A DNA stretch of 64,000 nt from Eubacteriales bacterium. Its GTDB lineage: Bacteria > Bacillota > Clostridia > Oscillospirales > QAKW01. A program made the translations under genes and the position numbers. The DNA is taken from contig JAZNXL010000015.1 of NCBI GenBank assembly GCA_045593905.1, positions 4,572 through 68,571 on the forward strand, in the 5' to 3' direction. Shown here piece after piece: positions 8,506 through 56,262 of the stretch (the stretch's first letter is position 1; every line of letters begins with the position of its first letter). The notes beneath the pieces are model-generated. The model worked only from the letters and a program-made list of their open reading frames with translations, was not told where the DNA came from and did not search any database.

Positions 8506-8507
8506 AT

Positions 8508-10027: not shown

Positions 10028-10032
10028 TGCCA

Positions 10033-10070
10033 CCTCCGTCTGTCAACAATACTGACAACGGAGGTTTTTT
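10033..10070 (+). terminator. intrinsic terminator
   Basis: Stem cctccgt...acggagg with inner tgtca/tgaca pairing, followed by tttttt. Confidence 0.7.
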
Positions 10071-10073
10071 ACT

Positions 10074-10760: not shown

Positions 10761-10797
10761 CACTTTATTTTTAAAATAATTTTGCTATAATGGGGTT

Positions 10798-11199: not shown

Positions 11200-11204
11200 A
11201 AAAA

Positions 11205-11230
11205 CTCGGTAATTTTTTACCGGGTTTTTT
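11205..11230 (+). terminator. intrinsic terminator
   Basis: Stem ctcggtaa / ttaccggg followed by a T-run. Confidence 0.65.
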
Positions 11231-11278
11231 AATATTTATCGCTTTTTTATGCAAACTTAAAATAAAGGAGTGATAATT

Positions 11279-12610: not shown

Positions 12611-12611
12611 T

Positions 12612-14332: not shown

Positions 14333-14342
14333 ATAAAAATAA

Positions 14343-14370
14343 AAAGAGAGTCTATTTTAGACTCTCTTTT
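14343..14370. terminator. bidirectional terminator between the ABC operon and trmD
   Basis: Stem aaagagagtct / agactctcttt with flanking A and T runs. Confidence 0.75.
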
Positions 14371-15535: not shown

Positions 15536-15545
15536 TTTTTTATCT

Positions 15546-15576
15546 CCAAAAAATAAAAGGAGGTTATACCTCCTTT
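15546..15576 (-). terminator. intra-operon stem-loop with U-tract between khpA-like gene and rimM
   Basis: On the minus strand: aaaggaggt-ata-acctccttt followed by tattttttgg. Confidence 0.5.
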
Positions 15577-15588
15577 AACAAAAATTGC

Positions 15589-15816
15589 TTACTTTATTTC
15601 AAGTACAACTTTTTTTGACAGCTTAAACGAAGCTGATTTAACGATAGAACGGATTGCTTTTGCAATTTTTCCGTGCTTACCGATAACTCTGCCCATGTCG
15701 TCTGCGGCAACACTTAAGGTATATACAATAGTATCCTCGGTTTCTTGCTCTGTAACAACAACTTCATCGGGCATATCCACAAGTGACTTTGCAAGATAGG
15801 TAATAAGTTCTTTCAT
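15589..15816 (-). CDS. KH-domain RNA-binding protein (KhpA/YlqC, UPF0109)
   Basis: 75 aa with the GRVIGKHGKIAKAIR KH GxxG motif. Sits between rpsP and rimM. Confidence 0.85.
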   Translation of the reverse strand: MKELITYLAKSLVDMPDEVVVTEQETEDTIVYTLSVAADDMGRVIGKHGKIAKAIRSIVKSASFKLSKKVVLEIK

Positions 15817-15856
15817 ATTTAACGTCCAATCTGAGAATTAGTAATAGGGTTATAGA

Positions 15857-16099
15857 TTAAAGAACGCCCTCTTTTTTTAACAAAGCCTTAACTGTATCTG
15901 TGGGTTGAGCGCCGTTTTTAATCCAATTTTTAGCTTTGTCAGCATCAATTGTAACGGTTGTAGGCTCAGTGCAGGGGTTGTATGTTCCGATTTCCTCGAT
16001 AAATCTACCATCGCGGGGGAATCTTGAATCAGCAACAACAATTCTATATGTGGGTGCATGTGTTGCGCCGAGTCTTCTAAGTCTAATTTTAACAGCCAT
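15857..16099 (-). CDS. rpsP: 30S ribosomal protein S16
   Basis: [26 protein letters not shown]. Confidence 0.95.
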
Positions 16100-16126
16100 T
16101 GTTTTTGTTCTCCTTTCGTAGTGTTT

Positions 16127-31115: not shown

Positions 31116-34100
31116 ATGAATCAAACAACAAAGCGTATTTTATCGTTAGTCCTTTCGCTTGTTGTAATGTTGTCAGTAGTTAGTGTTTATACATTTGCTG
31201 CCAACAATTACACCCCGGACGAAGAATATTACAACAACGTTATCAGCGACTCATTTGTTGTAAATCCCGCGTGGGAAGGGTTAGAAAAGGGTGACCCTGT
31301 AACATTTGAATTTGCAGGTAAAACCTATACCGAAAACTTTGACCCTACAACACGTTTTAGTACAATTCAGGCTGCGGTTGATGCTGCTAAATTGATTGGC
31401 GAAAATTACAGTCCTGTAATTGCTCTTTTGCCGGGCTTTTACAACGACCCTGCCGAAATCAGCGCAGACGTTACATTCGTAGGCCCCAACGGCGGTGTTA
31501 ACCCTGTTGTTAAATCAAACCAACCGAATCAGGCTTGGAGCAAAAGCGAAAGATATGACGAAGCAAAGCTTAACGCTGCAATTGTTATTAATACCGACTA
31601 CAGAAAAAACGTTGAGGTTGTTTTTGACGGCGTTACAATGTATCACAAATTTGCTTATATCGACGCTCGTACAATGGTAGCTGAGTCAAACGTTATAGTT
31701 AAAAACACCGTTATTGACGGTGCGGGTAGTGCTAACTACCTTGACTATTCAGCATCATCGGTGTTCTTTTTTGGTAACTCAAGAAACATTACCGCATCGG
31801 TTGAGGTTTGCGATACATATATCGAAAACATGGCTTCATCAAGTGTTTTTAGCGGCCGTGTTACAAACATTAACGTTCACGATATTTGCTTTACCACCAG
31901 CAAGGCAGGTTTGTTAAGCTCTACCGACGGTCAAACCGATATTAACCCGAACTATGTTGTTAAAGATTCTATGTTCTGCAATAACAACGCAACAGGCGGT
32001 GTTATTTCGGTTAACTATTCAACTACCGATACAAACTTAAGAACTTCAACCTCGCTCGAAATTTATAATTGCTCTTTCCTCGATGGCACATATACTGATT
32101 TTAACGAATTAGCCGAAGCTTCACCAATCAACATTACATTGGTTGGACCTAAAAACAACGTAAACATTCACGACAACTTTTTTAAAGGCAAAAGTAATTA
32201 CGAGGCATCGGCAGTAGCTTTCCAATACGCATCAAAAGCTCTTTCTGACGAGATGAAAGACAACATAAAGGTTAACAACAATAAGTTCTGCGGCTTTGTT
32301 AACCTGCCCGATACAGAGGGTGTTAACATTCTTACCTCGCTTGATTTCACAGGCAACTATTTTGCTAACTCGTACGAAAACCAAAAAGACCCTGTATTCA
32401 AGTATCCCAAGAGTGCTGTAAACCTTAAACTCGACTACTTTTATGTAGACAGTGAATTAAAGCACAAAAGCTCTGACTTTTATATGACTGATTTTGGCGT
32501 AAGCGGCGCTCGCATTGACAACTTAAAAAGAGAAGTTTATGCAGTTGTTGATTTTACTCAAAAAATTAATGTAAATATAAAAACAAACAACAATAAAACA
32601 ACATTTAAGTTATATTCAGACCCCGATTGCACACAAGAGGTTACAGTAGTTGACCCAACAACCTTTGGCGTTACCGGTCAAAAAGTGTACTACGCACAGT
32701 CTTCTTCAATTCTCTACCCCTCATACAAATATAAATACACAGTTTACCTTTCTACAAGTGACCCCGCGCAAGCAATTAAGTTTGATAAACCTTCAACATA
32801 TTTTGTATCAGAACAAGTTGCTTCGTACTCAAACGGTTCAGTTTACTACGCTGAGTGGGACGGCATTTCATATTCGTTTATTGTAGGTGAAAATGCTTTT
32901 GCCGACACAGCAGATATTTTTGCCCGTAACGATGCTTGTCCTACAATCTTGTTTTCTCCAGGCGAGTATACAAAAAACATTTATGTTACAAAATCAGCGA
33001 TTATCCTTGGTCAAAAACATGGCATAAACCCCAATGTAACAGACTTTGTTAACTACGATAAGCCGTGGTCAATTAATCCCGAAAGAAGTCAGGCAGACCA
33101 AGAAACAATTCTTAAAAACGCAACAATCGTATTTATGCCCCAAACCACAGGCGCAATATTAGAGGTTGACGGTATTACACTTGGCACATTCTCGGCAATT
33201 GACGACAGAAACTCGCTCGAGAACTTTTCAACAACACTTATCGTAAGCAACGTTATTATAGACGAGGCAGGTAATGCTTCTTATCAGGTACCCGGCAGTA
33301 CATCAGTTACTGCTCCTGCAACAATTATTAACTGCGCACCTTCTGCAGGCAAAGACGCATCTACAAACCACAAAACAGGCCGTTTCACAAACATTCGCAT
33401 GGTTGGTCAAAAAGGACAGCCGCTCTTTGATATGATTGCTGAAAACGCAATTTTCGATGGTATTTATGCAGAAGCAAACAATTCGAAATTGTTCAGAATG
33501 GAGATTACATCTCCTATGAAGCAGAATATGCACTTTGAAATAAGAAACTCGTTCTTTATCAATAACACGATTAGTTCCAGTGACTATTACTTTATCGTAA
33601 ATCACAACATTGCTCGAAGCGCTGAACGAGAGTACAGTGCGTTTGTTCTTAAAAACAATGTGTTCTTTGGCAATACCACATCAAAATGGGGTATTTTTGG
33701 TGTAAGATATGGCTCTGCGCAAGATATTTGCGATTTTTCAAACAATATTTTTGCTTCGAGCGTTGCTGTATCGCTCTCTCCCGGTTCTGTAGGCTGGTTT
33801 ATAGGTGCTGTTGGTAACGGCCCTGTTCTTAACAATCAGGATATTGTTGACCAGGATAACATCATTATTAAGTACAACAGATTTTTAGGTACACTCGGTC
33901 CGTCAGCCTTTACCTTCCCCAGTATGCTTGCTACCAACGAAAAATCAAGATATGATGTTTCGTACAACTACTTTAGTAATTCGCTCGCAAGAGGCGATGA
34001 TGGCGGTGCACCCAAAACTGCAGACGCTATTCGTCACAAATGCGACGTTTACTTTAGTGACTGGGATATGAAACAGCCTTCTGTTGTAACAGAAGAATAC

Positions 34101-36146
34101 AACAAGGCTCTTGGTTATGCTATTAACGCCCCCGGTATCTTAAATGGTAAAACTTATACCGACAATGTGTCGGCACTAACCGAAACTTACGACTTTGATA
34201 TTGAGTTAACAACACCCCAGGCTTCGTATGGTGTATACAGTGACGCTGCTTGCACAAACAAGCTTGCATACCCTGTACAGTTAGCGGGCGGACAAAATGT
34301 GTTCTATATCAGGTTTGAGTCTTTCGACAAGAGCGTTACTGATACAATCACAGCAACAATCACAAAACCCCAATCAACACAGACTGCAGGACTTACAGCT
34401 TTTGGCACTGCTAAAATAGATGGAAACAACATTTTTGCCGTTGTTCCTGTTGGCACAACAACCTATGCTATCCCAAGTGCAAATGTTCCTGTTCAGGTTT
34501 ATAACGACTCGGGTTGTACATTGCCGTTTACAAGCTCGGTTATTACAGGTATTACAACAACACCTATCGTTAAGTATGTTAAAGCAAACGGTGTAAAATA
34601 CACACTCACAGTTTTGCAGGCAGTAAACGACCAGGCTGAACTTATTTCGGTTGGCGGCGGTCAAAGAGTATCTGATACCGAGTTTAAGGTTGATATACTT
34701 TCGTCTTGGTTTATGATTGAGCCTGTTTACTCAAGCGCTGCATCAATAAAAGTAACTGTTAATTCACAAGAGATTGCTCCAAATGAAGACGGTTATTACT
34801 ATATTCAAAATATAGCGACCTCAAAAACTGCAGTTATTACAGTTACTGCCGAGAACGGCAACAAAAAAACATACACTGTTAATATTATAAGAGGTGCATC
34901 AACAAGCAAGGTTGTCAGCATATTCAATATGACTCCTAACGGCTCTGATAACGTGCGTTTTGACACAATCATAAGTGATGCTATATTTAAGGTTGAACCC
35001 ACCTTAGAGGGTATAGGCGCTACCTATCAGGTATATAGCGATAAAGCATGTACTCAACCTGTAATTGACAACATTGCTATTCTTTCAGCTCGTGAAACAA
35101 CCCTGTACTTAAAAGTTGTTTCGGCTGATAAAACCTCAACAAATTTGGTTACACTCAACATTACTTGTACACGTTTTCCAAAGTTTGATAAGGTTGAAGA
35201 ACAAAAATACAATTGGTCAATAGAAGGCGCTACTCTTGTTCCCGGTACAACTGACTGTTATACAGTAGTTGCTAACGAAACAAACTCTAATGCCAAAAAC
35301 TTTAAGCTTGTTGTAAATTTGGAAGGCAAAAAATACAAAAAGAGCTATTTTGAAATACTTGCCGTAGAGGGTGGCGAGCGTGTTGGTGAAACAACAACTG
35401 TAAACAACAAAGCTGCTGTGCCGCTCAATGGCAGAAATACACGTTATTTTGTCAGATTATATATTTGCGAGGGCGAGGAGTCTGTTGCTTCTATAAAAAG
35501 TTATCTTACCATCGTTAGACCTCAGGCTGCTGTTACATACGCCGATGCTGCAGCTACTGCTGATTGGGCAAAACCGTATGTAGATTACCTTAACAATAAC
35601 GGCTTTGCATATTTTGTAGGCGATAGCAACAAAAACTTTAACGCAAACACAGGCATCTCAAGATTTGAGGTTGCAGTTGTTGTTTGTAAAATGCTTGGTA
35701 TTAATGTTAACTACACAAAAACAGGTACCGTTCCGTTTACCGACGAAATTCCTGAGTGGGCATCACCTTACGTAAAGGCTTGCTTTAAGCTTGGAATTAT
35801 GTCAGGTAAATCTGAAACAAGCTTTGATGGTTACGCTAAAACAACAAGACAAGAATTTGCCCGTGTAATTACACAAACAATCGCTGTTTCGCAAGGTGAC
35901 CTTACACCTATTAACGATATTTACTCAACAAACAAAGCGCTTATTGACCTTCTTTATGAAAGAATGGGCTTTGCTGATGAGTCTACGGTTGCCGAGTGGG
36001 CTAAACCCGGTATCCGTCTTGCCGTTGCACACTACAATGTAATGAGTGGCTCGGCTCAAAACGGTAAGCTTTATGTTAACCCCACAAACGATATTACTCG
36101 TCAAGAGGTTGCAGTACTTATTGCAAAACACGAAGGCGCACAATAA
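31116..36146 (+). CDS. 1676-aa cell-surface protein with beta-helix-like repeats and three C-terminal SLH domains
   Basis: Signal peptide. Two long segments rich in N/G-turn repeats, compatible with a right-handed beta-helix. Ig-like spacer segments. C-terminus carries 3 SLH modules (ADWAKPYVDYL..., IPEWASPYVKAC..., VAEWAKPGIRLA...). Confidence 0.8.
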   Translation: MNQTTKRILSLVLSLVVMLSVVSVYTFAANNYTPDEEYYNNVISDSFVVNPAWEGLEKGDPVTFEFAGKTYTENFDPTTRFSTIQAAVDAAKLIGENYSPVIALLPGFYNDPAEISADVTFVGPNGGVNPVVKSNQPNQAWSKSERYDEAKLNAAIVINTDYRKNVEVVFDGVTMYHKFAYIDARTMVAESNVIVKNTVIDGAGSANYLDYSASSVFFFGNSRNITASVEVCDTYIENMASSSVFSGRVTNINVHDICFTTSKAGLLSSTDGQTDINPNYVVKDSMFCNNNATGGVISVNYSTTDTNLRTSTSLEIYNCSFLDGTYTDFNELAEASPINITLVGPKNNVNIHDNFFKGKSNYEASAVAFQYASKALSDEMKDNIKVNNNKFCGFVNLPDTEGVNILTSLDFTGNYFANSYENQKDPVFKYPKSAVNLKLDYFYVDSELKHKSSDFYMTDFGVSGARIDNLKREVYAVVDFTQKINVNIKTNNNKTTFKLYSDPDCTQEVTVVDPTTFGVTGQKVYYAQSSSILYPSYKYKYTVYLSTSDPAQAIKFDKPSTYFVSEQVASYSNGSVYYAEWDGISYSFIVGENAFADTADIFARNDACPTILFSPGEYTKNIYVTKSAIILGQKHGINPNVTDFVNYDKPWSINPERSQADQETILKNATIVFMPQTTGAILEVDGITLGTFSAIDDRNSLENFSTTLIVSNVIIDEAGNASYQVPGSTSVTAPATIINCAPSAGKDASTNHKTGRFTNIRMVGQKGQPLFDMIAENAIFDGIYAEANNSKLFRMEITSPMKQNMHFEIRNSFFINNTISSSDYYFIVNHNIARSAEREYSAFVLKNNVFFGNTTSKWGIFGVRYGSAQDICDFSNNIFASSVAVSLSPGSVGWFIGAVGNGPVLNNQDIVDQDNIIIKYNRFLGTLGPSAFTFPSMLATNEKSRYDVSYNYFSNSLARGDDGGAPKTADAIRHKCDVYFSDWDMKQPSVVTEEYNKALGYAINAPGILNGKTYTDNVSALTETYDFDIELTTPQASYGVYSDAACTNKLAYPVQLAGGQNVFYIRFESFDKSVTDTITATITKPQSTQTAGLTAFGTAKIDGNNIFAVVPVGTTTYAIPSANVPVQVYNDSGCTLPFTSSVITGITTTPIVKYVKANGVKYTLTVLQAVNDQAELISVGGGQRVSDTEFKVDILSSWFMIEPVYSSAASIKVTVNSQEIAPNEDGYYYIQNIATSKTAVITVTAENGNKKTYTVNIIRGASTSKVVSIFNMTPNGSDNVRFDTIISDAIFKVEPTLEGIGATYQVYSDKACTQPVIDNIAILSARETTLYLKVVSADKTSTNLVTLNITCTRFPKFDKVEEQKYNWSIEGATLVPGTTDCYTVVANETNSNAKNFKLVVNLEGKKYKKSYFEILAVEGGERVGETTTVNNKAAVPLNGRNTRYFVRLYICEGEESVASIKSYLTIVRPQAAVTYADAAATADWAKPYVDYLNNNGFAYFVGDSNKNFNANTGISRFEVAVVVCKMLGINVNYTKTGTVPFTDEIPEWASPYVKACFKLGIMSGKSETSFDGYAKTTRQEFARVITQTIAVSQGDLTPINDIYSTNKALIDLLYERMGFADESTVAEWAKPGIRLAVAHYNVMSGSAQNGKLYVNPTNDITRQEVAVLIAKHEGAQ

Positions 36147-46485: not shown

Positions 46486-48678
46486 ATGTCAATAAATGTT
46501 TATCCTGTAATACACTCTAAAGACCACTGTGAAGATTATAAAGTTAAGATAAACGGCAGGGAGGTAGCGCTTAATACCGCAAGAGTTTCAGCAGTGCCTC
46601 ATAACCGTCGTTGGCCGGGACATCAGCGCGATATTAATCAAACCGAGCTTGTAAACTTTTTATCGTTACAACTTAACCAAGAGGCGGTTTTTGAAATAAC
46701 ACCTCAAAAGCCGTTTGAAAAGGTGGTAATACGTCCGCTTTCATTAGGCATTCAGCCGATAATACAAAACGGCACAATTAAGTTTACGCTCAAAAAAGCA
46801 CAGTATTTTACAGTTGAAGCATACGGACGCCATCACGCGCTTCACGTGTTTGCCGACCCTGTTAGCAATTACGATATTGATATAACCGACAAAAGCGTTA
46901 TATACTACGGCAAAGGCGAGCACGATGCAGGATTTATTAACCTTGAGAGCAACCAGACGCTGTTTATCGACGAGGGCGCAGTAGTATACGGCTGCGTAAG
47001 GGCAACCGATGCCAAAAACATAAAAATCATAGGCCGTGGCATACTCGATAACAGTAAAAATAAAGAGCAGATTCTTTTTGAGCAAAACGCTTCAAACAAC
47101 CATGAGGCAATAAAAAACGCGGTAAGAGAGCACACAATTCAGATTAAGTATTGCACCGATATTACTATCGAGGGTATTACCATACGTGATTCGCTTTGCT
47201 ATAACATAAGACCTACTGCATGCAAAAACTTACACATTTCAAACGTAAAAATTATCGGTTGCTGGCGTTATAACTCCGACGGTATCGATATGCACAACTG
47301 TGAAAACGTTTTAATCGAAAACTGTTTTATCCGCACCTTTGACGACTGTATTTGTGTTAAGGGCTTTGACTGTTATTTTGAAGGCGACGTTGATGCGGCG
47401 GTTAAGGCTGCAATGTACCGTGGCGGTAAAGCCTACGACGTATTTAAAAACGTACGCGTGCGTAATTGTGTGTTGTGGAACGATTGGAACAAGTGCCTTG
47501 AAATAGGCGCCGAAACCCGCGCTGAAGAGATGTGCGACATTATTTTTGAAGATTGCGATATTATACACGTTACAGGCACCGTGCTCGATTGCTATAACGT
47601 TGACTATGCCGACGTTCACGACGTTGTATACCGCAATATAAGAATAGAGTACGACGACGTTATCCCCGCACCGCTTTATCAAGAAACCGACGAGCAGGTT
47701 TACTACAATAAAAACGTTGACTACGCACCTGCGCTTATTAAGGTTGTGTCAGATTTTCAGCACGAGTACTCGGCAAAAGGTGAGCGCAGAGGTATTAACC
47801 GCGACATCACTTTTGAAAACATTTATCTTTACTCACGCCAAAAGCCAAAGTGCGTGTTTAAAGGCTATAGCGAACAATACTGCACTAAAAACATTACGGT
47901 AAAAAATCTTTATTGGAACAACACTCCTGTTGAGAGCTTTGACGATGGGAACTGGGACGTCAGAGATTTTGCATACGATATCAAGTTTGAAAGCGCCTTT
48001 GCTCAGCTTGATAAAAATACCGTTGACGCCTCTAATCAGTTAAAGCAAAGCGGACCTGTAAGGGTTATTAACCCCGAGGGCAAAGGCAAAAGAGTGCTTT
48101 TGGTAGGCAACTCAATCACCCTTCACGGTATCGCGCCCAAAATTGGGTGGTACGGTGAGTGGGGTATGGCGGCATCGAGCGAGCAAAACGACTACGTGCA
48201 TCAGCTTATCAAAAACGTTAAAAACGATAACAACGACGCGGTATTTTGCATTTGTCAGGTTTCCGCGTGGGAGCAAAAATACAAAAACGGAAGCGAACAG
48301 TTATCACGCTATCAGTCGGCGCGTGATTTTAATGCCGATATAATTGTTGCGCGCTTTTCAGAAAACTGCCCAAAAACCGAGTTCGATAACGACTGCTTTA
48401 AAAACGCAACAACCGAGCTTTTAAACTATTTAGACCCCGAACAAAAAGCAAAGGTTATTATAACGACAAGCTTTTGGCATCACCCTGCTGATACTGCAAT
48501 AGTTGAACTTGCAAACGATAATGCGTGGCCGCTTGTTACTCTTGGTGACCTTGGCGAACAAGACAAGATGAAAGCAATAGGACTTTTTGAGCACTCGGGC
48601 GTTGCAAACCACCCCGGCGACCTTGGTATGAAGGCAATTGCCGACAGAATTTTAACAGAACTTAAAAAATTATTGTAA
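46486..48678 (+). CDS. fusion: GH28-like pectin-lyase-fold glycosidase + SGNH/GDSL-type esterase domain
   Basis: Beta-helix core with NSDGIDMHNC and FDDCICVKG, matching the GH28 NTDG / DD(C) motifs. The C-terminal ~200 aa carry LLVGNSITLHG (block I) and NHPGDLGM (block V). No signal peptide. Confidence 0.7.
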   Translation: MSINVYPVIHSKDHCEDYKVKINGREVALNTARVSAVPHNRRWPGHQRDINQTELVNFLSLQLNQEAVFEITPQKPFEKVVIRPLSLGIQPIIQNGTIKFTLKKAQYFTVEAYGRHHALHVFADPVSNYDIDITDKSVIYYGKGEHDAGFINLESNQTLFIDEGAVVYGCVRATDAKNIKIIGRGILDNSKNKEQILFEQNASNNHEAIKNAVREHTIQIKYCTDITIEGITIRDSLCYNIRPTACKNLHISNVKIIGCWRYNSDGIDMHNCENVLIENCFIRTFDDCICVKGFDCYFEGDVDAAVKAAMYRGGKAYDVFKNVRVRNCVLWNDWNKCLEIGAETRAEEMCDIIFEDCDIIHVTGTVLDCYNVDYADVHDVVYRNIRIEYDDVIPAPLYQETDEQVYYNKNVDYAPALIKVVSDFQHEYSAKGERRGINRDITFENIYLYSRQKPKCVFKGYSEQYCTKNITVKNLYWNNTPVESFDDGNWDVRDFAYDIKFESAFAQLDKNTVDASNQLKQSGPVRVINPEGKGKRVLLVGNSITLHGIAPKIGWYGEWGMAASSEQNDYVHQLIKNVKNDNNDAVFCICQVSAWEQKYKNGSEQLSRYQSARDFNADIIVARFSENCPKTEFDNDCFKNATTELLNYLDPEQKAKVIITTSFWHHPADTAIVELANDNAWPLVTLGDLGEQDKMKAIGLFEHSGVANHPGDLGMKAIADRILTELKKLL

Positions 48679-48687
48679 TTTATATGT

Positions 48688-48714
48688 AAAAAGCACCCTT
48701 CGGGGTGCTTTTTA
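48688..48714. terminator. bidirectional terminator (right end of the GH28 gene, end of the kinase operon)
   Basis: Stem gcaccc-ttcg-gggtgc with flanking A and T runs. Confidence 0.8.
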
Positions 48715-49416
48715 TATACTTTTTTTGAGTTGTAATGCAGTTTGATACCTGTTGTCCGGGTTTATGCTTGTACACTTGGAAACAATTCTTCCAAGATGAC
48801 CGTCGGCAATTTTTTCGGTAGGGTGCTTTCCTGTTAATAACACATTCAGTAATACGCCTGCGGCATAAATATCAGTTCGTTCGTCGCTCTCTTTAAGTCC
48901 TAACTGTTCAGGGGGAGCGTAGCCAACGGTACCCATTACCTCGGTGTCGTGACTTTTTTGTGAAATTCTGCGTGCGGCACTAAAATCAATTAACACTATA
49001 CGTCCGTTTTTATCTACCATAACGTTTTCAGGCTTAATGTCGCGATGTACTATACCGTTTTGATGTAATACCTGCATTGCATTACAAAGCTGACGTAAAA
49101 TTTTTTTAACGCCGTTTTTGCGGTATTTACCTGTTTGCGCAACCTCGGCAACTGTTAAGCCGTTAATGTATTCTTCTAAAACAATAACTCCGTCACTACA
49201 GTTGTAAATATCATAAACTGCAGGAAGGTTTACGCACCTTCCGTTACAAAGAGTTTGATATACATCGTTTTGCTTTTTTAGTATGCGCAAAACGTAGTCC
49301 TGCTCGTTTTTGCGGTGCCTTACACGAAATACTCTATTCTCGTTTCTGTCTGAAAGAAGAGATACTTTTATAAAAAAATCCCAAAGCAGTTGTAGTTGTT
49401 GCTCGCAAGTGTTCAT
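48712..49416 (-). CDS. stand-alone Ser/Thr protein kinase domain (atypical)
   Basis: HRDIKPENVMV catalytic loop, DFS (instead of DFG), GTVGYAPPE. No GxGxxG loop recognisable, and no TM or sensor domain. ATG 49416 follows a GAGGAG RBS and forms ATGA with the upstream stop. Confidence 0.8.
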   Translation of the reverse strand: MNTCEQQLQLLWDFFIKVSLLSDRNENRVFRVRHRKNEQDYVLRILKKQNDVYQTLCNGRCVNLPAVYDIYNCSDGVIVLEEYINGLTVAEVAQTGKYRKNGVKKILRQLCNAMQVLHQNGIVHRDIKPENVMVDKNGRIVLIDFSAARRISQKSHDTEVMGTVGYAPPEQLGLKESDERTDIYAAGVLLNVLLTGKHPTEKIADGHLGRIVSKCTSINPDNRYQTALQLKKSI

Positions 49417-50471
49417 CCGTTCCACTCCTCATACACCGCATCATAGTAGCTACTTGCAATATTGCGATAATAACGAAAATCACGGTTGTTACAGTTATAT
49501 GAACAATGAATAGTAAGTGCTGCGTTTCTTTTTTCTTTGGACGCAAACGCCTGTATATCAACGTGTATTGAATTTGCGCCTAAATATATATCGGTTAAGT
49601 TAACGCAGCCTGAAAAAGCAAATTCCCAAACCGTTCTTACCGTTTCGGGAAGATAAACCTGTTTTACGGTTGTTTTAACATTTTCACCATTAAAAGCTGA
49701 ACGCTGAATAGCAATTACTTTTTTTCCGTCTATTGTTGACGGTACACGGTATATGCCGTCAGCGGCGGGGGTTGAAACGCCTGTAATTACAACGCAATTA
49801 TCCACATTCGAGGTTACAAGGTAATCGTCAATAGCGTACTCGGCATCTCTATAGGTGTAAACTGCAGTAGTTGTAACAGGGGTGTCTTGCTGCTCTTGTT
49901 TAGGGGTGTCTTGTTGTTCTTGATTGGGGGTATCTTGCTGTTCCTGATTAGGAGTATCTTGTTGTTGCTGATTAGGAGTATCTTGTTGTTCTTGATTGGG
50001 AGTATCTTGTTGGTCAGGAGAGACTTTGACAGGTTTTTCAGGGTCGGTTTGCGGTGTGGTAACTGTGGTATCCGGCACAGTTGTATTTGGACCGCCTACA
50101 TAAATTTCTGAACCACCGTCAGATTTATTTTGCTTATTATTCGAGTTTGGTGTTTTATTATTTTGGTTGGCATTATTGCCGTTTGATTGTTGTGACTCTG
50201 AATTTGAATCAGTATTTTTTGTTGTATCTTCAACGTTTGTTTGTTGTTGGTCAGGTTGTTTTGGCGGCTTTACAGTTTGTTTAGGCAAAAAAATAAGCGC
50301 TGTAATGCCTATAACACAAGCAAAAACGGCACAACAAATAATCAGTACCAATCGCCGTGGGCGATTAAGCGCTGCAATTAATTGTGCCTTAGGCTCAAGC
50401 TCTTTCATGCAATATAAGCATACTCGCGCATTTTCTTCAATTGTAGCATTACAATAGGGGCAGTTTTTCAT
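49413..50471 (-). CDS. zinc-ribbon / TM / Q-P-T-rich linker / BspA-type leucine-rich-repeat protein
   Basis: N-terminal CPYC...CLYC, one TM segment, a low-complexity linker with QQDTPNQE repeats, and a C-terminal LRR-like segment (IQRSAFNG...LPETVRTVWEFAFSGCVNLTDIYLGANSIHVDIQAFA). Confidence 0.65.
   Translation of the reverse strand: MKNCPYCNATIEENARVCLYCMKELEPKAQLIAALNRPRRLVLIICCAVFACVIGITALIFLPKQTVKPPKQPDQQQTNVEDTTKNTDSNSESQQSNGNNANQNNKTPNSNNKQNKSDGGSEIYVGGPNTTVPDTTVTTPQTDPEKPVKVSPDQQDTPNQEQQDTPNQQQQDTPNQEQQDTPNQEQQDTPKQEQQDTPVTTTAVYTYRDAEYAIDDYLVTSNVDNCVVITGVSTPAADGIYRVPSTIDGKKVIAIQRSAFNGENVKTTVKQVYLPETVRTVWEFAFSGCVNLTDIYLGANSIHVDIQAFASKEKRNAALTIHCSYNCNNRDFRYYRNIASSYYDAVYEEWNG
49881..50018. 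repeat. 24-nt tandem repeat, about 5.75 copies, in-frame (QQDTPNQE)n
   Basis: Units ggtgtcttgytgytcttgwttrgg read directly from the sequence. They lie inside the linker of the ZnR-LRR gene. Confidence 0.9.
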
Positions 50472-50890
50472 CCTAACGTTTCCAAATCGTAATCAAATAA
50501 TAATTCGTTTATTTCTATTACAGATAGCTTTTTACAAATACCAAACAACACTATGCTGTCAAACGGGAGCTTAACATAAAGGGTAGGGTAGCCTGCGCAT
50601 TTTAAAAGTGTTTGCACCTCATCTAAAGAGAGTTCCATTCCAATTGCAAGGCATAATAGCTTATTTCGTTCAGGCACACGGATACCCGAAAAAATCTGAT
50701 AAGCATAAACCTCTGAAAGCTCGGCTTTTTTAATAACCTCAGACTTTTTTAAGCCCTTTTGCTCAAGTAATGATGCAAGCATCTGCGAAAGCGTGCTGGT
50801 TACCATATAATCTTTGTTTTCGTTGTAAAAAGTTTGAAAACTCGGGCATAACCCCAATTCTTCAACTATTTTAGAAGTGTCTTTTTTCAT
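50468..50890 (-). CDS. XRE-like HTH-domain protein (140 aa)
   Basis: HTH-like core KKSEVIKKAELSEVYAYQIFSGIRVPERNKLL. Start set at MKKDTSK (ATG 50890). Its stop overlaps the downstream start (ATGA). Confidence 0.6.
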   Translation of the reverse strand: MKKDTSKIVEELGLCPSFQTFYNENKDYMVTSTLSQMLASLLEQKGLKKSEVIKKAELSEVYAYQIFSGIRVPERNKLLCLAIGMELSLDEVQTLLKCAGYPTLYVKLPFDSIVLFGICKKLSVIEINELLFDYDLETLG

Positions 50891-50914
50891 AAACCCACAC
50901 ATCCTTAAACATCT

Positions 50915-50968
50915 TATGCTTTTAGCATAACATAATCGACAAATTTTTTCAACTATGCTGTCAGCATA
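50915..50968. promoter_or_regulatory. two 15-bp palindromic operator candidates, TATGCT-N3-AGCATA
   Basis: Palindromes at 50915-50929 and 50954-50968 have identical half-sites, with centres 39 bp apart. They bracket or overlap the promoter below. Confidence 0.6.
50924..50952 (-). promoter_or_regulatory. candidate promoter of the HTH-LRR-kinase operon
   Basis: On the minus strand: TTGAAA, 17 nt, TATGCT. The -10 hexamer is itself a half-site of the proximal palindrome. Confidence 0.45.
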
Positions 50969-51015
50969 GGACATTATTAAACTGCCGATTTATAATATTT
51001 AAAGGATGAGGGGTT

Positions 51016-51276
51016 TTATATACGTTCTACATCCTGTGCAGAAAGTATTTGGGAAATTGGAACTTCCAAGCTTTTTGAAAAGATTATTAAATCAATGTCG
51101 GTTACAAACCTTTCACCGTTTTCAACCCGACGAATAAAGTAATGGTCTACGTCAAATCCCAATAATTGCATTTTTTCTGCCAGCTTCCGCTGGGATAGCT
51201 TTTTGCTTTTGCGTATTTGCATTATACGCTTTCCGCAAAGGTTGTTGGTGCCGTCTGCGGCTTTAATCTTAAACAT
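51016..51276 (-). CDS. XRE-family HTH transcriptional regulator (86 aa)
   Basis: LSQRKLAEKMQLLGFDVDHYFIRRVENGER HTH_3-type motif. GAGGGA RBS 6 nt upstream of the ATG. Confidence 0.85.
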   Translation of the reverse strand: MFKIKAADGTNNLCGKRIMQIRKSKKLSQRKLAEKMQLLGFDVDHYFIRRVENGERFVTDIDLIIFSKSLEVPISQILSAQDVERI

Positions 51277-51291
51277 AACAAATCCCTCATT

Positions 51292-51366
51292 TTTGTTGAA
51301 TACTATTTACTTTTTTATTATTGTATGATAAAATACAATATATTTTGGTGAATAGTATTCAACAAA
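51292..51366. promoter_or_regulatory. perfect 16-bp inverted repeat pair flanking the divergent promoter region
   Basis: tttgttgaatactatt (51292-51307) and aatagtattcaacaaa (51351-51366), 43 nt apart. The interval contains a TGaTAAAAT extended -10 (51326-51334). Confidence 0.55.
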
Positions 51367-51431
51367 ATAAGGGGTTTTATTTATACCCAAAAAATATTTG
51401 CAGCCGAAAAATCGGCAGAAAGAGGTTTATT

Positions 51432-51935
51432 ATGGGATTTATGGAGAAATTGGGTGCAACACTCGCAACAAAATACGGTGAGGTTACCGAAGGCAGACAC
51501 GAGGGCTGTGTTGTTGCTTTGGGCAATCCGCCAGATAAAAAGGTTAGTGCTACCAACAAGTTTACTCAAATTATATTCCTTGAAGACAAAGAAACAAAGG
51601 GTAGATACGATATTGGTTCACAGGCTAAAGCATTACACTTTGTTGAAAGCGACCACGACAGCGTGACAGTAGTTATTGATTTTGCTGACGGCGATAGCTC
51701 TACAATAGTTCTTAGCACACCAAAAGAAGACAGTGGCGTTGTATCGCTTATTAAGGGTCAGCTCGGTTTAAAATCGGCAACCAAGGTGAATAAAGACGGT
51801 ACTACTCAAACTGATAACGATGTTAAGTATCATAATATAAAAACCTTCTTGTTAACATTTGTTCATAACTATGCAGGAGATGATGCTATAAAGGTTCGTG
51901 ATTATTTAGATAGCATCGGTTTGTTAAAAAAATAA
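51432..51935 (+). CDS. hypothetical protein (167 aa), no family recognised
   Basis: ATG 51432 lies 6 nt after the AGAAAGAGG RBS; the track ORF from 51321 has no RBS. Predicted soluble. Confidence 0.6.
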   Translation: MGFMEKLGATLATKYGEVTEGRHEGCVVALGNPPDKKVSATNKFTQIIFLEDKETKGRYDIGSQAKALHFVESDHDSVTVVIDFADGDSSTIVLSTPKEDSGVVSLIKGQLGLKSATKVNKDGTTQTDNDVKYHNIKTFLLTFVHNYAGDDAIKVRDYLDSIGLLKK

Positions 51936-51956
51936 TTAACGAAAGGACATAAAGCA

Positions 51957-52502
51957 ATGGAGCTTATTAACAACGAAGCAAAATGGTTTTTGTCAGAACA
52001 AGGCAAAAAAGCATTTGACAACTGTAAAAATCTCGAGGAACGTTCGGTATTTATTTATTCGTATTTAAAAAAGATTTCGGTAAACTCTTTAAATAAAGAT
52101 TCTTTTTTGTTCAGAATTGCGTTTTTGTTAGCAAACTCTGTTCACTCATCAAAGGCTGAATATGCTAACTATCCCGAACTTCTTGACGAAAGTAAAAACC
52201 CTTTTGTTGCTTATGTTAAAAATGCAAAAAAGGTTTATTCAATTCAAATTAATTACTGTATTCTTTTATCAATCTTACATAAAATAGCTAATCCTTTTAA
52301 TACAGATGACTGGGTATATAATCAAGCGTTTGTTGAATCAAAGGCGTATATTGACAAAGCAAAGGAACTTGAAAAATGTTTTATTGAAGATACCAAAGCT
52401 CGTGTGATTGACAATAGTGTTTATGATATTGATGAGGCTTTGCGTGATATTCAAATTGAAATCGCCTGGCTTTTTATTCTTCAAGATAAGGAGGATAAAT
52501 AA
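51957..52502 (+). CDS. hypothetical protein (181 aa), probably all-alpha, no family recognised
   Basis: AAAGGAC RBS. AT-rich coding sequence. The stop directly abuts the next start. Confidence 0.6.
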   Translation: MELINNEAKWFLSEQGKKAFDNCKNLEERSVFIYSYLKKISVNSLNKDSFLFRIAFLLANSVHSSKAEYANYPELLDESKNPFVAYVKNAKKVYSIQINYCILLSILHKIANPFNTDDWVYNQAFVESKAYIDKAKELEKCFIEDTKARVIDNSVYDIDEALRDIQIEIAWLFILQDKEDK

Positions 52503-53591
52503 ATGAACGATAACAAAGAGTTAATTGGTCAGTTAGAGCAACTTGACCAGCTTATCGACGAGAATGAAAATTTAAACTTTTATATTGAGCACGGTGCAGC
52601 AAGAGAAGCTCTTGAACAAATTGCAGTTATTCGCGAAAAACGCGGACAGGCTCCAAAAGCGCCCTCTGTTTACACCACAATGCCGGTTTATCCGTTAAAC
52701 GAAAGCGTGTATTTACCGCTCGAAAAATCATATAATCTTGCTAAAAAAATATTTTTTGGTGCTTTGGGCGTAACAGTTCTTATGGCTATTATATATATGA
52801 TTAGTAAAGCTGATTTTTTCAATACACTTTCCACAATTGGAATTATGGGCTCAATTGTTTCGGGTATCTATCACTCTAAAATAAAAGGTCAATATAAAGA
52901 CAAAAAGAAAACATATGACGAGTCTGTTAAAACCTTTGAAAGAACTATGGGTGCTTTTCGTAAAGGACTTGCAAACCTTGACCAAGAAAAGCAAACTGCT
53001 TTAGACGAACTAAATGCATATAAACAATTAAACGCTGTTTGTTATGAAGAATATACAGTTGCTTTTAACCAGTATTCTGACAACATTGATAACGCAAAAG
53101 CTATATATGCTGTTAATTCGGACCAAATTAACAGCAGTGAGGTTTTACCAGTTGATTACCATCATCTTGTTAAACCCATAATTTCAATTTTAAAAAGTGG
53201 TAGAGCGGACACATATAAAGAAGCTCTTAACTTAGCAATTGACGAGGAACGTCAAGAAAGAGAAGCTGCAGCTCGCCGTGAGGCAGAGGCTCGCCGCCAA
53301 GCCGAAGAAGAGCGCCGTACCGAAATTATGAGACGTCAGGCAGAAGAAGAACGCCGTCATAACGAGCAAATGGAGCGTCAACAGGCTGAACAGGCAAGAG
53401 AAGCTGCCCGTCAACAACAAGCAGCACAACGCCAACAGGCAGAGCAGGCAAGAGAGGCTGCGCGTCAACAAAGTCGTCAAGAAAGTATAGGCAGAAGTAA
53501 GTGTCATAGTTGTGCCAATTACAGCCATTGCCCATCTCATGTAAAAAAGAGTGGTGCAGGACTTACTTGCGGTGGCTATAGACCAAGATAA
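52503..53591 (+). CDS. hypothetical membrane protein with coiled-coil, E/R/Q-rich repeat and Cys/His-rich tail (362 aa)
   Basis: Two TM helices (about residues 82-125). Duplicated RQQAEQAREAARQQ. C-terminal CHSCANYSHCPSH...CGGY. Confidence 0.65.
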   Translation: MNDNKELIGQLEQLDQLIDENENLNFYIEHGAAREALEQIAVIREKRGQAPKAPSVYTTMPVYPLNESVYLPLEKSYNLAKKIFFGALGVTVLMAIIYMISKADFFNTLSTIGIMGSIVSGIYHSKIKGQYKDKKKTYDESVKTFERTMGAFRKGLANLDQEKQTALDELNAYKQLNAVCYEEYTVAFNQYSDNIDNAKAIYAVNSDQINSSEVLPVDYHHLVKPIISILKSGRADTYKEALNLAIDEERQEREAAARREAEARRQAEEERRTEIMRRQAEEERRHNEQMERQQAEQAREAARQQQAAQRQQAEQAREAARQQSRQESIGRSKCHSCANYSHCPSHVKKSGAGLTCGGYRPR

Positions 53592-53602
53592 CCGTATAAC
53601 AA

Positions 53603-53633
53603 AAAGAACGCAATTTTATTGCGTTCTTTTTTT
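53603..53633 (+). terminator. intrinsic terminator ending the orphan operon
   Basis: Stem gaacgcaat / attgcgttc followed by ttttttt. Confidence 0.8.
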
Positions 53634-53667
53634 GATTGTGCTATCATAAAATCAAGAGGTGATTAAA

Positions 53668-54390
53668 ATGATTAAATACCAAATAGAAGGCGGAAATTTA
53701 CCTGTTGTAATTTGTAATTTGCAACAAGGTCAAACGCTTGCTTGCGAAAGCGGTGCTATGAGTTGGATGTCGCCTAATATGAAAATGGATACCAATGCGG
53801 GCGGCGGTATAAAAAAAGCACTCGGCAGGCTTTTTAGCGGCGAGTCGATATTTTTAAACGAGTACACAGCCGAGGGCGGCGAGGGTATGATTGCGTTTGC
53901 ATCAAGCTTTCCCGGCAGCATTATTCCGTATCAGGTTACCGAGGGTAATGGCATTATTGTTCAAAAACGTGGCTTTTTAGCAATGGAAAAAGGCTTGGAA
54001 CTTTCGGTATATTTTCAAAAAAAATTAAGCAGAGGCTTTTTTGGCGGCGAAGGCTTTATTATGCAACAAATACAGGGTAACGGCCTTGTGTTTTTAGAAA
54101 TTGACGGTCACTGTAAAGAATATGACCTTGCAGCAGGTGAGAGCATTATTGTTGACACAGGTTACCTTGCCGCAATGACCGATAGTTGTACAATGGATGT
54201 TGAAATGGTAAAAGGTGCAAAAAACATATTCCTTGGCGGCGAGGGACTTTTTCACACCAAAATAACAGGCCCCGGTAAAGTATATATCCAGTCAATGCCA
54301 ATTATTAACATTGCCCAGCGCCTAACACCTTATCTTAACTTAAACTCTGACAACGACGGCGGCGGAATTAACATTAAATTCGGCGACTAA
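53668..54390 (+). CDS. AIM24/DUF124 (TIGR00266-like) family protein
   Basis: MIKYQIEGGNLPVV..., SGAMSWM, GEGFIMQQIQGNG and GPGKVYIQSMP match AIM24-family blocks. ATG 53668 follows an AGAGGTG RBS. Confidence 0.78.
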   Translation: MIKYQIEGGNLPVVICNLQQGQTLACESGAMSWMSPNMKMDTNAGGGIKKALGRLFSGESIFLNEYTAEGGEGMIAFASSFPGSIIPYQVTEGNGIIVQKRGFLAMEKGLELSVYFQKKLSRGFFGGEGFIMQQIQGNGLVFLEIDGHCKEYDLAAGESIIVDTGYLAAMTDSCTMDVEMVKGAKNIFLGGEGLFHTKITGPGKVYIQSMPIINIAQRLTPYLNLNSDNDGGGINIKFGD

Positions 54391-54395
54391 TATTA

Positions 54396-54428
54396 AAACC
54401 CCAAGACTTAAGTCTTGGGGTTTGTTTT
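54396..54428. terminator. bidirectional terminator
   Basis: Stem aaaccccaagact / agtcttggggttt. Confidence 0.8.
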
Positions 54429-56262
54429 ATAGCCACAATGCTGCGGCGCCGATCAGTCCTGCGTCGTTGCCGAGTGTTGCTGTAATAATTTTTGTGTTTG
54501 TTTTATCATTACCGCCAAACACCTCGCGGTCTAATATGTTTTGAAGCGGTAGCGTGAGCGCGTCGCCCTCGTTACAAATTCCTCCGCCCAAAATTATTAC
54601 TTCGGGTCTGAAAATGTTAGCAACATTGGTAATACCCAACCCTAACATTTTAATATATTTGTCTACTACCTCTTTCGCAGTTTTATCTATATTGTAATAC
54701 TCAAAGGCGGTTCTTCCCGAAACGGCATCAATCGAATACGTTTCAAACATTTTGCTTTTTGGGTTTTGTTGCATTGCGCGTTTGGTATCTCGAACAAGCG
54801 CACTTGCCGATGCATACGCTTCGAGGCAGCCTTGTCTTCCGCAGCTGCATTTTTCGCCGTCTTTAACAACAACCATATGCCCGATTTCAGCGCCTGCGCC
54901 TTGGTGACCTTCAAATAGCTTGCCGTCTAAAACAATTCCGCTTCCCACACCTGTTCCAAGCGTTAGCATAACGCTGTTTTGGTAGTCTTTCGCCGAACCG
55001 AATTTAGCTTCGCCGAGAGCTGCAACGTTGGCATCGTTTGCAATTTTTACATCAAGGTTAAGTGCCTGTGACACCTCGGTTGCTATTGAAAAATCACTCC
55101 AACCAAGATTGTTAGAATAAGTTACTTTACCTGTTTTGCTATCTATAGTACCCGGAACACCAATGCCTACACCTGTAATATCAAGGGTGGTAAGGTTGGT
55201 GGCATCAAGCATACTGTTGCAAAGCGCTACAATGTTATTTACAACCTGCTTGGCGCCATGCTTTCTTTGAGTGGGGACTTTGTTTTGATAAATAATATTA
55301 CCCGTATCGTCAACAATTCCGCCTTTAATATATGTACCGCCAAGGTCAATACCCAGGTAGTATTTGCGAATATCAACAACTATTGCGGTTAATCTGCCCG
55401 CAATTACATACTCACCATAGTCTGCAGGTACAAAAAAGCTGTCGCCTTGATTTATTACGTTGCCGTCAATTTTGCCTTCGCCCTCAAGGCAGGTTATTGA
55501 GTGAAAGCTTTTGTTGTTTGTTTTTTGATGTAAAACTCCGTCAACGGTAACTTTTTGCACGTTAAAATACTTGCTTACGCCAAGGGTACTACCCGATAAC
55601 TGATTTAAAACGTGTTTATTCAGGTTTGTAACACCAAGCGCCTTGTCAATGTGCAATTCACGTGATTTGCCGTTTTTATCAACGCGACCATAGTCGTATA
55701 CGCGGTATGTAGTGTTGCTGTTTTGCTGAATTTCGCATATCAAACAGCCCGCGCCGATTGCGTGAATAGTTCCTGCGGGGATAAAAAAGCAATCACCTTT
55801 TTTAACAGGATAAAAATTCAAAAGGTCGGTAAGAGTGTTATTTAATATTGCGCTTTTATATTCCTCGGGCGTTATATCTCGGTTAAACCCTAAATAAATT
55901 CCTGCACCCTCTTCAGCTTCAACAATATACCACATCTCTGTTTTTCCGTAAGAGTTTTCGTAGCTCAGCGCGTACTCGTCAGCGGGGTGCACCTGAATAG
56001 AAAGATTTTGTTTAGCATCAATCAGCTTTGTCATAACAGGAAAAAACGAAAAGTCGCAAACATTACTGCCTTTTTGCTTGTCGGTAATCGTTTCTTCTAA
56101 TGTTTGTCCGTTTGCAACGCGAGTCTTTCCGTCAGTGTGAAAAGATAACTCCCAGCTTTCAGCACAGGGGTTACAAGCACCGCTTTTGCCGTATTTTTCA
56201 TTAAGCTTGTTTCCGCCCCAAAGGTAATCTTTACAAACAGGGTATAATTTTTGTATTTCCAT
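54427..56262 (-). CDS. fusion: type I phosphomannose-isomerase-like cupin + ROK-family sugar kinase
   Basis: N-terminal YLWGG, SIQVHPAD, VYDYGR and ELHID (PMI class I). C-terminal ROK domain LGIDLGGTYIKGG, GAGAEIGHM, CSCGRQGCLEAYAS. Confidence 0.8.
   Translation of the reverse strand: MEIQKLYPVCKDYLWGGNKLNEKYGKSGACNPCAESWELSFHTDGKTRVANGQTLEETITDKQKGSNVCDFSFFPVMTKLIDAKQNLSIQVHPADEYALSYENSYGKTEMWYIVEAEEGAGIYLGFNRDITPEEYKSAILNNTLTDLLNFYPVKKGDCFFIPAGTIHAIGAGCLICEIQQNSNTTYRVYDYGRVDKNGKSRELHIDKALGVTNLNKHVLNQLSGSTLGVSKYFNVQKVTVDGVLHQKTNNKSFHSITCLEGEGKIDGNVINQGDSFFVPADYGEYVIAGRLTAIVVDIRKYYLGIDLGGTYIKGGIVDDTGNIIYQNKVPTQRKHGAKQVVNNIVALCNSMLDATNLTTLDITGVGIGVPGTIDSKTGKVTYSNNLGWSDFSIATEVSQALNLDVKIANDANVAALGEAKFGSAKDYQNSVMLTLGTGVGSGIVLDGKLFEGHQGAGAEIGHMVVVKDGEKCSCGRQGCLEAYASASALVRDTKRAMQQNPKSKMFETYSIDAVSGRTAFEYYNIDKTAKEVVDKYIKMLGLGITNVANIFRPEVIILGGGICNEGDALTLPLQNILDREVFGGNDKTNTKIITATLGNDAGLIGAAALWL

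Follow-up and report, generated by a model that had tools for sequence, protein, structure and literature searches.

The 64-kb contig window analysed here (from contig JAZNXL010000015.1 of a Eubacteriales bacterium; "the window" denotes this whole stretch) carries an island of seven genes, about 4.9 kb long and bounded by transcription terminators at 48683 and 53631. We show that these seven genes constitute a single conserved cassette, not a loose collection of genes, and that this cassette is found at different chromosomal sites. Judged by sequence comparison, the island is an accessory insertion that was horizontally acquired. In the interpretation that we favour, which we consider evenly poised, a split receptor-kinase arm acts together with an XRE switch to govern an inducible membrane effector operon, most likely with a role in conflict or defence; a role in defence specifically is put forward more tentatively, as possible rather than probable.

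Four genes on the minus strand, encoding an XRE repressor, a second helix-turn-helix (HTH) regulator termed HTH140, a membrane sensor and a kinase, diverge from three genes on the plus strand, orf167, orf181 and orf362. An earlier note, made from the sequence alone, had described seven open reading frames (ORFs) here, and their sizes, strands and divergent layout were all borne out by the ORFs of the window; its assignments for the four minus-strand genes agree with the Pfam matches. The features of the island are as follows.

48683..48718, both strands: intrinsic terminator acting in both directions (16-bp stem, then a T-run); forms the left edge of the cassette.
48712..49416, minus strand: stand-alone Hanks-type Ser/Thr kinase, 234 aa from the ATG (Pkinase, PF00069, E=4e-35).
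49413..50471, minus strand: membrane sensor of 352 aa with zinc ribbon, transmembrane segment and leucine-rich-repeat-like domain (ZnR-TM-LRR; Pfam and hydropathy).
50468..50890, minus strand: HTH140, second helix-turn-helix regulator, 140 aa (weak HTH_31 match).
50924..50969, minus strand: internal promoter of the HTH140-sensor-kinase operon (consensus scan).
51016..51276, minus strand: XRE/Cro-type repressor, 86 aa (HTH_3, E=4.5e-5; PADLOC Control_protein, E=3e-7).
51277..51431: divergent control region, two inverted operators bracketing face-to-face promoters.
51432..51935, plus strand: orf167, soluble protein of 167 aa (AlphaFold2 model, pLDDT 81.6, pTM 0.78).
51957..52502, plus strand: orf181, soluble, all-helical protein of 181 aa (AlphaFold2 model, pLDDT 88.9, pTM 0.87).
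52503..53591, plus strand: orf362, membrane-anchored protein of 362 aa (family alignment A3, hydropathy and composition).
53601..53631, plus strand: intrinsic terminator closing the orf167-orf181-orf362 operon (14-bp stem, then a T-run); forms the right edge of the cassette.

Both terminators, which the earlier note had placed at the ends of the island, are real as judged by folding energies and z-scores. On the plus strand the left hairpin (48683-48718) has a folding energy of -22.5 kcal/mol (z=-6.8), compared with -19.1 kcal/mol (z=-7.2) on the minus strand; it terminates the GH28 gene on the plus strand as well as the kinase operon on the minus strand. The right hairpin (53601-53631) folds with -19.2 kcal/mol (z=-6.4). 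Within the minus-strand arm the kinase start and the sensor stop share a 4-nt ATGA overlap, and the sensor start overlaps the HTH140 stop likewise by 4 nt; on the plus strand, orf362 starts at the base right after the orf181 stop. This spacing of the gene junctions fits two operons. A scan of positions 48000-54500 against Rfam returned chance-level matches only.

A check for co-occurrence of the seven genes recovered the same set in L082, L084-86, L088, L091, L096-100, L104, L108 and L109, in at least nine unrelated chromosomal contexts of metagenome-assembled genomes (MAGs) of gut Clostridia, with tblastn supporting the homology of every cassette component. In the shared layout, a kinase of 233-240 aa, a ZnR-TM-LRR protein of 294-393 aa, a 140-aa HTH protein and an XRE protein of 85-86 aa form one arm, which diverges from an arm of orf167-like, orf181-like and orf362-like genes. 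Every cassette is flanked by hairpin terminators, one immediately behind the kinase gene and one behind the last gene of the plus arm, and a comparison of eight cassettes for terminal repeats or shared end sequences found only these terminators themselves.

The surroundings differ from locus to locus. Neighbouring genes encode HAD hydrolases and phosphoglucomutase in L082, a Tn7-like TnsB/TniB/TniQ element with a resolvase in L084, L085 and L086, sortase and AhpF in L088, a GMP-synthase-like protein and a Fic protein in L096-100, and an IS200 transposase in L109; the Tn7-like element (L084/85) and IS200 (L109) lie outside the cassette, as neighbours. A VbhA-like gene follows downstream in L108, the gene order of the plus arm is permuted in L104, and L091 is a short contig, the flanks of its cassette falling outside the contig. 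In L085 (6296-7008) gene calling broke the kinase gene into two ORFs (129 and 116 aa), with the other six genes intact; it is probably a pseudogene resulting from a frameshift.

Homologues of the plus-strand proteins are rare and none is named: among 5.8 billion proteins we found 13 clusters for orf181, 61 for orf167 and 85 for orf362, and a profile search with orf181 through 1.84 billion proteins returned 180 representatives at E<=1e-3. The orf362 profile found no relative in IMG/VR, tblastn of orf362 and orf167 gave no match in GenBank phages (50,697 records), and tblastn of orf362 gave none in PLSDB plasmids (72,556 records). A scan of metagenome contigs yielded five loci only, and an exact-sequence look-up of orf362 retrieved no record.

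At the site occupied in the window, between GH28 and AIM24 genes, relatives lack the island. We fetched 80 AIM24-bearing loci with the neighbouring AIM24 protein, from Faecousia, Acutalibacteraceae and Oscillospiraceae MAGs of animal guts; the best AIM24 relative among them is 83% identical, and tblastn detected no homologue of any island gene in any of the 80. An empty site is seen in L027, where 77 bp with a single terminator separate the end of the GH28 orthologue (72% identity) from AIM24. The comparison of synteny around GH28 and AIM24 that the earlier note had suggested therefore shows that the island is not universally kept. Of the relatives found, L081 is the closest (94-95% protein identity), and in it the island directly adjoins the PMI-ROK gene and no AIM24 gene is present (L081:3344-3381, compared with window positions 53592-54426); AIM24 is thus itself variably present, and the neighbourhood is fluid.

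The composition of the island also sets it apart from its host sequence. Its GC content is 37.7%, compared with 41.2% for the rest of the window, and it is the lowest-GC 4.9-kb stretch anywhere in the 64 kb. GC content at third codon positions (GC3) is below the mean of the 43 other window genes for all seven genes (z between -0.5 and -3.3), so that the AT-richness is modest but systematic. The earlier note had called parts of the island AT-rich from hand counts of 18 and 37 G+C in two lines of 60; both counts proved exact on recount, and windowed GC and GC3 deviate from the host in the direction that it described. Its remark that no integrase or transposase is present also holds, as the ORFs and Pfam matches of the window include none within or beside the island.

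The control DNA and the regulators are the most uniform parts of the cassette. Across cassettes, and relative to the window protein in each case, XRE is 82-86% identical and HTH140 68-76%, compared with 49-57% for full-length matches of the kinase (64% for a 96-residue fragment at the end of L091), 38-72% for orf167, 35-62% for orf181 and 34-55% for orf362. In these alignments both HTH proteins are far more conserved than the other cassette proteins, and the promoter/operator DNA, almost unchanged between cassettes, equals them in this; the effector proteins drop to some 30-45% identity. The core of the divergent region is invariant in 10 cassettes. It contains two inverted copies of the operator GTTGAAyAsTrTTyAC (GTTGAATAcTATTyAC in the window), at 51295-51310 and 51348-51363, and this operator has no other occurrence in the 64-kb window. 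The plus-strand promoter has a -35 TTTACT and an extended -10 TAAAAT (51306-51334), and the minus-strand promoter reads TTCACC/TATCAT (51352-51325). One operator copy overlaps the plus-strand -35 TTTACT and the other overlaps the minus-strand -35 TTCACC, each copy thereby lying just downstream of the opposite promoter.

In addition, the HTH140-sensor-kinase operon has a promoter of its own. The palindrome CTATGCTGACAGCATAG at 50953-50969 abuts the -35 TTGAAA (50947-50952), which is followed, after a 17-nt spacer, by an extended -10 TGtTATGCT with its hexamer at 50924-50929. This palindrome (50953-50969, CTATGCTGnCAGCATAG) occurs exactly once in each of 15 cassette-bearing loci, in none of the 94 others among the 109 loci, and nowhere else in the window. 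From two HTH proteins and two types of operator we infer that the cassette carries a predicted two-layer switch. PDB-sequence profile searches with HTH140 and XRE gave nothing significant. The start of the 140-aa HTH protein agrees with the gene calls in all loci. A longer, 168-aa ORF was considered as its start and rejected: the upstream part, which is conserved promoter/operator DNA and not coding sequence, had seemed conserved because the ORF runs through operator DNA, and the 140-aa start is therefore real. Shortly before the ribosome-binding site of orf167 there is a small hairpin, GCCGA-AAAA-TCGGC (window 51403-51416, plus strand). Stems of differing sequence are present in the orf167 leaders of L082, L084, L088, L091 and L096, with compensatory changes in some cassettes; as a conserved element this hairpin was rejected, having z=-1.4 and being absent from L104, L108 and L109.

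The sensor consists of a conserved 30-residue zinc ribbon, a transmembrane (TM) segment, a linker of about 140 aa with repeats rich in P, T, Q, N and E, and an ectodomain of about 150 aa resembling BspA-type leucine-rich repeats (LRRs). The zinc-ribbon matches at residues 1-27 are weak, hydropathy indicates one TM segment at about 37-67, and the LRR_5 match at residues 251-313 (E=1e-5) scores 25.9 bits, compared with a cutoff of 27.7. The N-side flank of the TM segment is positively charged, which places the zinc ribbon in the cytoplasm. Zinc ribbon and ectodomain are conserved in seven cassettes and the linker alone varies, also in length; the ectodomain, with its three conserved cysteines, is kept in all cassettes. 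We considered an exchange of ectodomains between cassettes and rejected it, as MAFFT alignment shows the ectodomain to be conserved and the low-complexity linker to vary. The linker of the window protein repeats the 8-residue unit DTPNQEQQ about five times in tandem (49860-50010, minus strand). The contig of L081 breaks off within the sensor gene after residue 72, before the repeat is reached; repeats of this kind may interrupt assemblies and may vary in length.

The kinase is stand-alone, with no hydrophobic TM segment by hydropathy and no PASTA match in Pfam within its 234 residues. Among solved structures, PknB kinase domains come closest (E about 1e-23 to 6e-27). Its catalytic loop is intact, and the motifs HRDxKPxN, DF[S/N] and GT.GYA.PE, the last ending in A(P/S)PE, are invariant in six cassettes.

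For the three plus-strand ORFs the earlier note had recognised no family, and none emerged from Pfam (also searched with every member of the family alignments), NCBIfam, PHROGs or PADLOC; the family profiles A1, A2 and A3, the last being that of orf362, likewise found nothing significant among PDB sequences. In orf167 the N-terminal half is highly conserved (MGFMEKxGAxxATKYG ... ALGNxP ... QIIF ... GRY), with 24 invariant columns in 36 sequences. Its AlphaFold2 model shows a seven-stranded beta-sandwich followed by C-terminal helices, and most top Foldseek matches in the PDB are PH or PTB domains, with probabilities up to 0.99, E-values of about 1e-2 and TM-scores of 0.3-0.4, none reaching E<=1e-3. 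On this model, orf167 looks PH-like. The model of orf181 has no structural neighbour in the PDB (best E=2) or in BFVD (best E=1.1), and orf181 is an undescribed family.

The third protein, orf362, begins with a coil that leads into a PSV..P.FP motif. Hydrophobic segments follow at about 82-103 and, more weakly, at 108-128, and, given the positive charge that flanks them, they probably form a TM hairpin whose two ends are cytoplasmic. Next comes a helical region that ends in the invariant motif LKSGRADxYKEALNLAIxEE, then a helix of about 80 residues that is 88% E, R, K, Q and A, and the C-terminus carries four cysteines in the pattern CxxCxN...C...CGGY.P. L106 has orf362 in two pieces, one the TM half and the other the soluble half. 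Where the kinase arm is missing (L083, L101/102 and L106/107), orf181 and orf362 stay together; in other organisms they are fused, as orf181-orf362 in P0281 and in the reverse order in P0299. These arrangements show orf181 and orf362, as far as gene order and fusions tell, to be a functional pair. Other orf181-like domains are attached to unrelated membrane proteins, and a Pfam scan of the long fusions that contain orf181 found no informative extra domain bar one sub-threshold SH3_3.

In the mechanism that we propose, the sensor would display its small LRR-like domain beyond the cell wall on the long disordered linker, with the zinc ribbon in the cytoplasm, where the translationally coupled kinase would dock on it and be switched by an event at the surface. 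XRE, bound to the two inverted operators over the face-to-face promoters, would repress the plus-strand operon and itself, and HTH140 would act at the palindrome next to the -35 of the sensor-kinase promoter. The output of the kinase would relieve repression or act directly on the products, and the conserved N-terminus of orf167, bearing Thr and Tyr, is a candidate substrate. The response itself would be a membrane complex of orf362, with its TM hairpin, long charged helix and Cys4 knuckle, together with orf181 and the PH-like orf167.

We found no description of this seven-gene set in the literature, and comparison with known systems shows partial likenesses. Receptor kinases of the PknB, PrkC, StkP and Stk1 type resemble it in a kinase domain that is closest to PknB and in the combination of a cytoplasmic kinase with one TM segment and an extracellular sensor. 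In the cassette, however, receptor and kinase are separate, translationally coupled polypeptides, and in place of PASTA repeats the sensor carries a zinc ribbon, a TM segment, a linker and a domain resembling LRR_5; the kinase scores 132 bits with the NCBIfam model PknB_PASTA_kin (NF033483), far from the cutoff of 450 for membership, and its gene is accessory and not core. Stk2, PD-T4-6, Mad6 of MADS and PglW of BREX share with the cassette a Hanks-type kinase in a mobile accessory locus, and the PADLOC models PD-T4-6, mad6 and Stk2 match its kinase at E=4e-35 to 3e-23. The Stk2 match covers model positions 207-349 of 500 and hence not the full length, the scores with the NCBIfam models of MAD6 and PglW are far below the cutoffs, and PD-T4-6 and Stk2 are single-gene systems of larger proteins. 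The six partners in the cassette have no place in any of these kinase systems, and the cassette is a member of none of them.

Other regulatory systems differ in one or more essential parts. The cassette is not a HipBA system, the kinase being a Pkinase (PF00069) and not HipA, and XRE matching couple_hipB only weakly, at E=2.4e-4 with 21 bits compared with a cutoff of 71.65. Restriction-modification systems with a C-protein have a similar small XRE regulator (the Control_protein match at E=3e-7) and inverted operators over the -35s of face-to-face promoters, but no nuclease or methyltransferase domain was found in the seven proteins with Pfam, PADLOC, PHROGs or NCBIfam, which sets the cassette outside that class. 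Compared with a C-protein or Cro-CI switch, the cassette has a second HTH protein and a separate palindrome, and is without phage genes. Nor is it an extracytoplasmic function (ECF) sigma/anti-sigma pair, as the island has no sigma factor by Pfam and only the L092-95 variant described below has one. The ECF sigma/anti-sigma pair DdvS/DdvA is reported to regulate CBASS and CRISPR-Cas in Myxococcus (PMC11506125); there, too, a membrane-spanning regulator gates an accessory effector locus, but the cassette has a kinase and two HTH proteins, and effectors other than CBASS or CRISPR. Finally, the ORFs and Pfam matches of the island include no integrase, transposase or relaxase gene, and with no shared terminal repeats and no matches in the viral and plasmid collections searched it is not classed as a prophage, integrative and conjugative element (ICE) or transposon. 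The signalling logic of the cassette is familiar, that of a split receptor Hanks kinase combined with a switch in the style of Cro or C-proteins over an effector operon; its composition is undescribed, and it comprises three new protein families.

Several observations hint at a role in conflict. Defence-type neighbours occur in some contexts, namely SoFic (E=3e-36, near full length), a DrmA-like gene (E=8e-23) and a TIR gene with PemK, and other contexts have Fic/VbhA-like genes, the Tn7-like element or IS200; the occasional proximity of SoFic, DrmA-like, TIR and Tn7-like genes makes a role in defence or conflict plausible. The patchy distribution and an effector arm that evolves faster than the regulators were also counted for a conflict role. 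From gene content and context, the role that appears most likely is an inducible membrane response in conflict or defence, such as phage exclusion, abortive infection or competitor sensing, and the cassette is probably not housekeeping. Where the earlier note had likened the island to accessory signalling or defence-type islands, the accessory and signalling part stands; the defence part is more tentative, PADLOC picking out nothing beyond a generic kinase domain and an XRE fold, and the association with defence genes being partial.

A number of points weigh against this interpretation. No toxic enzyme domain is recognisable in the seven proteins, and PADLOC recognises none of the described systems in the set, just as the earlier note had been able to match it to none. 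The PADLOC matches of the kinase are confined to the catalytic domain (residues 48-217, aligned with model positions 84-260 of 350, or similar). About half of the contexts, among them the window, L082 and L088, are housekeeping or metabolic neighbourhoods, and no integrase, terminal repeats or target duplications that would account for mobility were found in eight cassettes. The kinase is without a Gly-rich loop, and the expected position of the beta3 (VAIK) lysine is R or H (R44 of the 234 residues), in a register obtained by ungapped projection of Pfam coordinates, the N-lobe being outside the PDB alignments; four residues further on there is an invariant Lys (K48). On sequence grounds the protein may thus be a kinase of atypical kind, but it may also be a pseudokinase or a scaffold. 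Which HTH protein pairs with which operator, and what the kinase phosphorylates, is guesswork.

Some of the same features would suit a function in envelope or environment signalling outside defence, in which the LRR domain would sense a host, dietary or cell-wall cue and the kinase and HTH proteins would induce a membrane-remodelling or stress-protection complex. Psp- and Lia-type envelope responses provide the analogy. The architecture of PknB/PrkC/StkP-type receptor kinases, the position of several cassettes among carbohydrate or housekeeping genes, the coiled-coil membrane protein orf362 and the lack of a toxin-like enzyme domain in Pfam, PADLOC, PHROGs and NCBIfam searches all agree with such a function. 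It accords poorly, however, with the patchy and site-variable occurrence, the foreign composition and the rarity of the family (85 clusters for orf362 among 5.8 billion proteins, 180 representatives for orf181 among 1.84 billion), and with Fic, TIR, DrmA-like and transposon genes nearby in several contexts. Pfam and PDB-sequence searches found no similarity to PspA, LiaH or other envelope-stress families, and on balance we rate this alternative as unlikely.

We consider it improbable that the cassette is a selfish addiction module of the toxin-antitoxin kind, with orf362, orf181 and orf167 as a membrane-damaging toxin that the XRE repressor holds off and with loss of the module being harmful. 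Seven conserved genes with a surface sensor and a kinase exceed the needs of a toxin-antitoxin pair, even though the cassette is small, mobile and present at many insertion sites without a recombinase of its own. The tightly autoregulated XRE is weakly similar to HipB/MqsA-type antitoxins and C-proteins, and toxin-antitoxin genes of the Fic type are frequent neighbours; yet the kinase is Hanks-type and not HipA, Foldseek of orf167 and orf181 gave no known toxin fold, and in L085 the cassette persists with its kinase split into two ORFs. Still less probable is a relic of a prophage, ICE or satellite, in which an immunity switch and a superinfection-exclusion membrane protein would have been left after decay. 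Low GC, divergent XRE-controlled promoters resembling a CI/Cro-type switch, and PHROGs matches to kinase and repressor families would be expected of such a relic. Against it, the same seven genes stand alone between clean terminator boundaries in at least nine contexts without integrase genes or phage genes for structure or replication. The search of BFVD gave no structural neighbour for orf181, orf362 is without a relative in IMG/VR, the 50,697 phage records match neither orf362 nor orf167, and the 72,556 plasmid records do not match orf362.

The reading of the cassette as an inducible conflict or defence response could be taken further, to an undescribed class of immune or conflict system made up of a wall-spanning LRR sensor, an atypical kinase, a two-repressor switch and a three-family membrane complex. 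We regard this stronger claim as rather unlikely. If it is true, LRR-receptor/kinase signalling would feed an immune output, as an analogue in logic, not by descent, of the LRR receptor kinases of plants and animals. If the interpretation that we favour is right, uncultured gut Clostridia would have provided a compact, portable signalling-plus-effector unit, in which a surface LRR sensor and a Hanks-type kinase are coupled to a transcription switch and a membrane effector, with three new families, one of them with a confident model that has no known structural relative. The circuit, with its two operator types and two promoters, would be fully defined and directly testable. Even without an assigned function, the cassette is a clean case of guilt by association, with at least nine contexts, an empty site and fusions that link two of its components.

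Variant loci carry parts of the cassette in other settings. In L092-95 a TM-linker-ectodomain homologous to the sensor is fused to an ECF sigma factor (sigma70_r2/r4), a fusion that independently links the surface domain to transcription control and to orf167; the locus may be a sister system. After the fusion come a Mor-like HTH gene and an orf167 homologue (L092:3724-10160, also L093-L095), next proteins of 69 aa (Cys-rich), 63 aa and 280 aa (of no family), and then a ZnR-TIR-TM-Big_2 protein, which matches ThsB/PDC-S66 weakly, and a PemK toxin. The CGTCANWGG motif of the 69-aa protein recalls the C-terminus of orf362.

A reduced cassette is found in L083 (1991-5139; GCA_045586045.1, JAZMZQ010000088.1), where a diverged XRE of 91 aa faces an orf181-like protein of 197 aa and an orf362-like protein of 336 aa, beside a 57-aa gene and a Fic gene. 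The block lies between a 377-aa Peptidase_S55 (SpoIVB-like) gene and a 53-aa Peptidase_S55 fragment, and looks to have been inserted into a sporulation protease gene, or to have duplicated its end. Beside the two-gene orf181/orf362 variant in L101 are, at 8338-16298, genes for a MoxR-type AAA ATPase, DUF2201_N, two unannotated proteins and a 1340-aa SNF2-like helicase; this block gave weak P-loop matches only in PADLOC and may be a separate accessory or defence system.

Elsewhere in the window, a 199-aa ORF at 67-666 (plus strand) has a GC content of 27% (z=-4.0 compared with the other window genes) and no Pfam family, and may be another foreign gene at the window edge. The gene at 31116-36146 (plus strand) encodes 1676 aa that include an SLH domain and a beta-sandwich of cadherin-like type, and its product is probably a large cell-surface protein.

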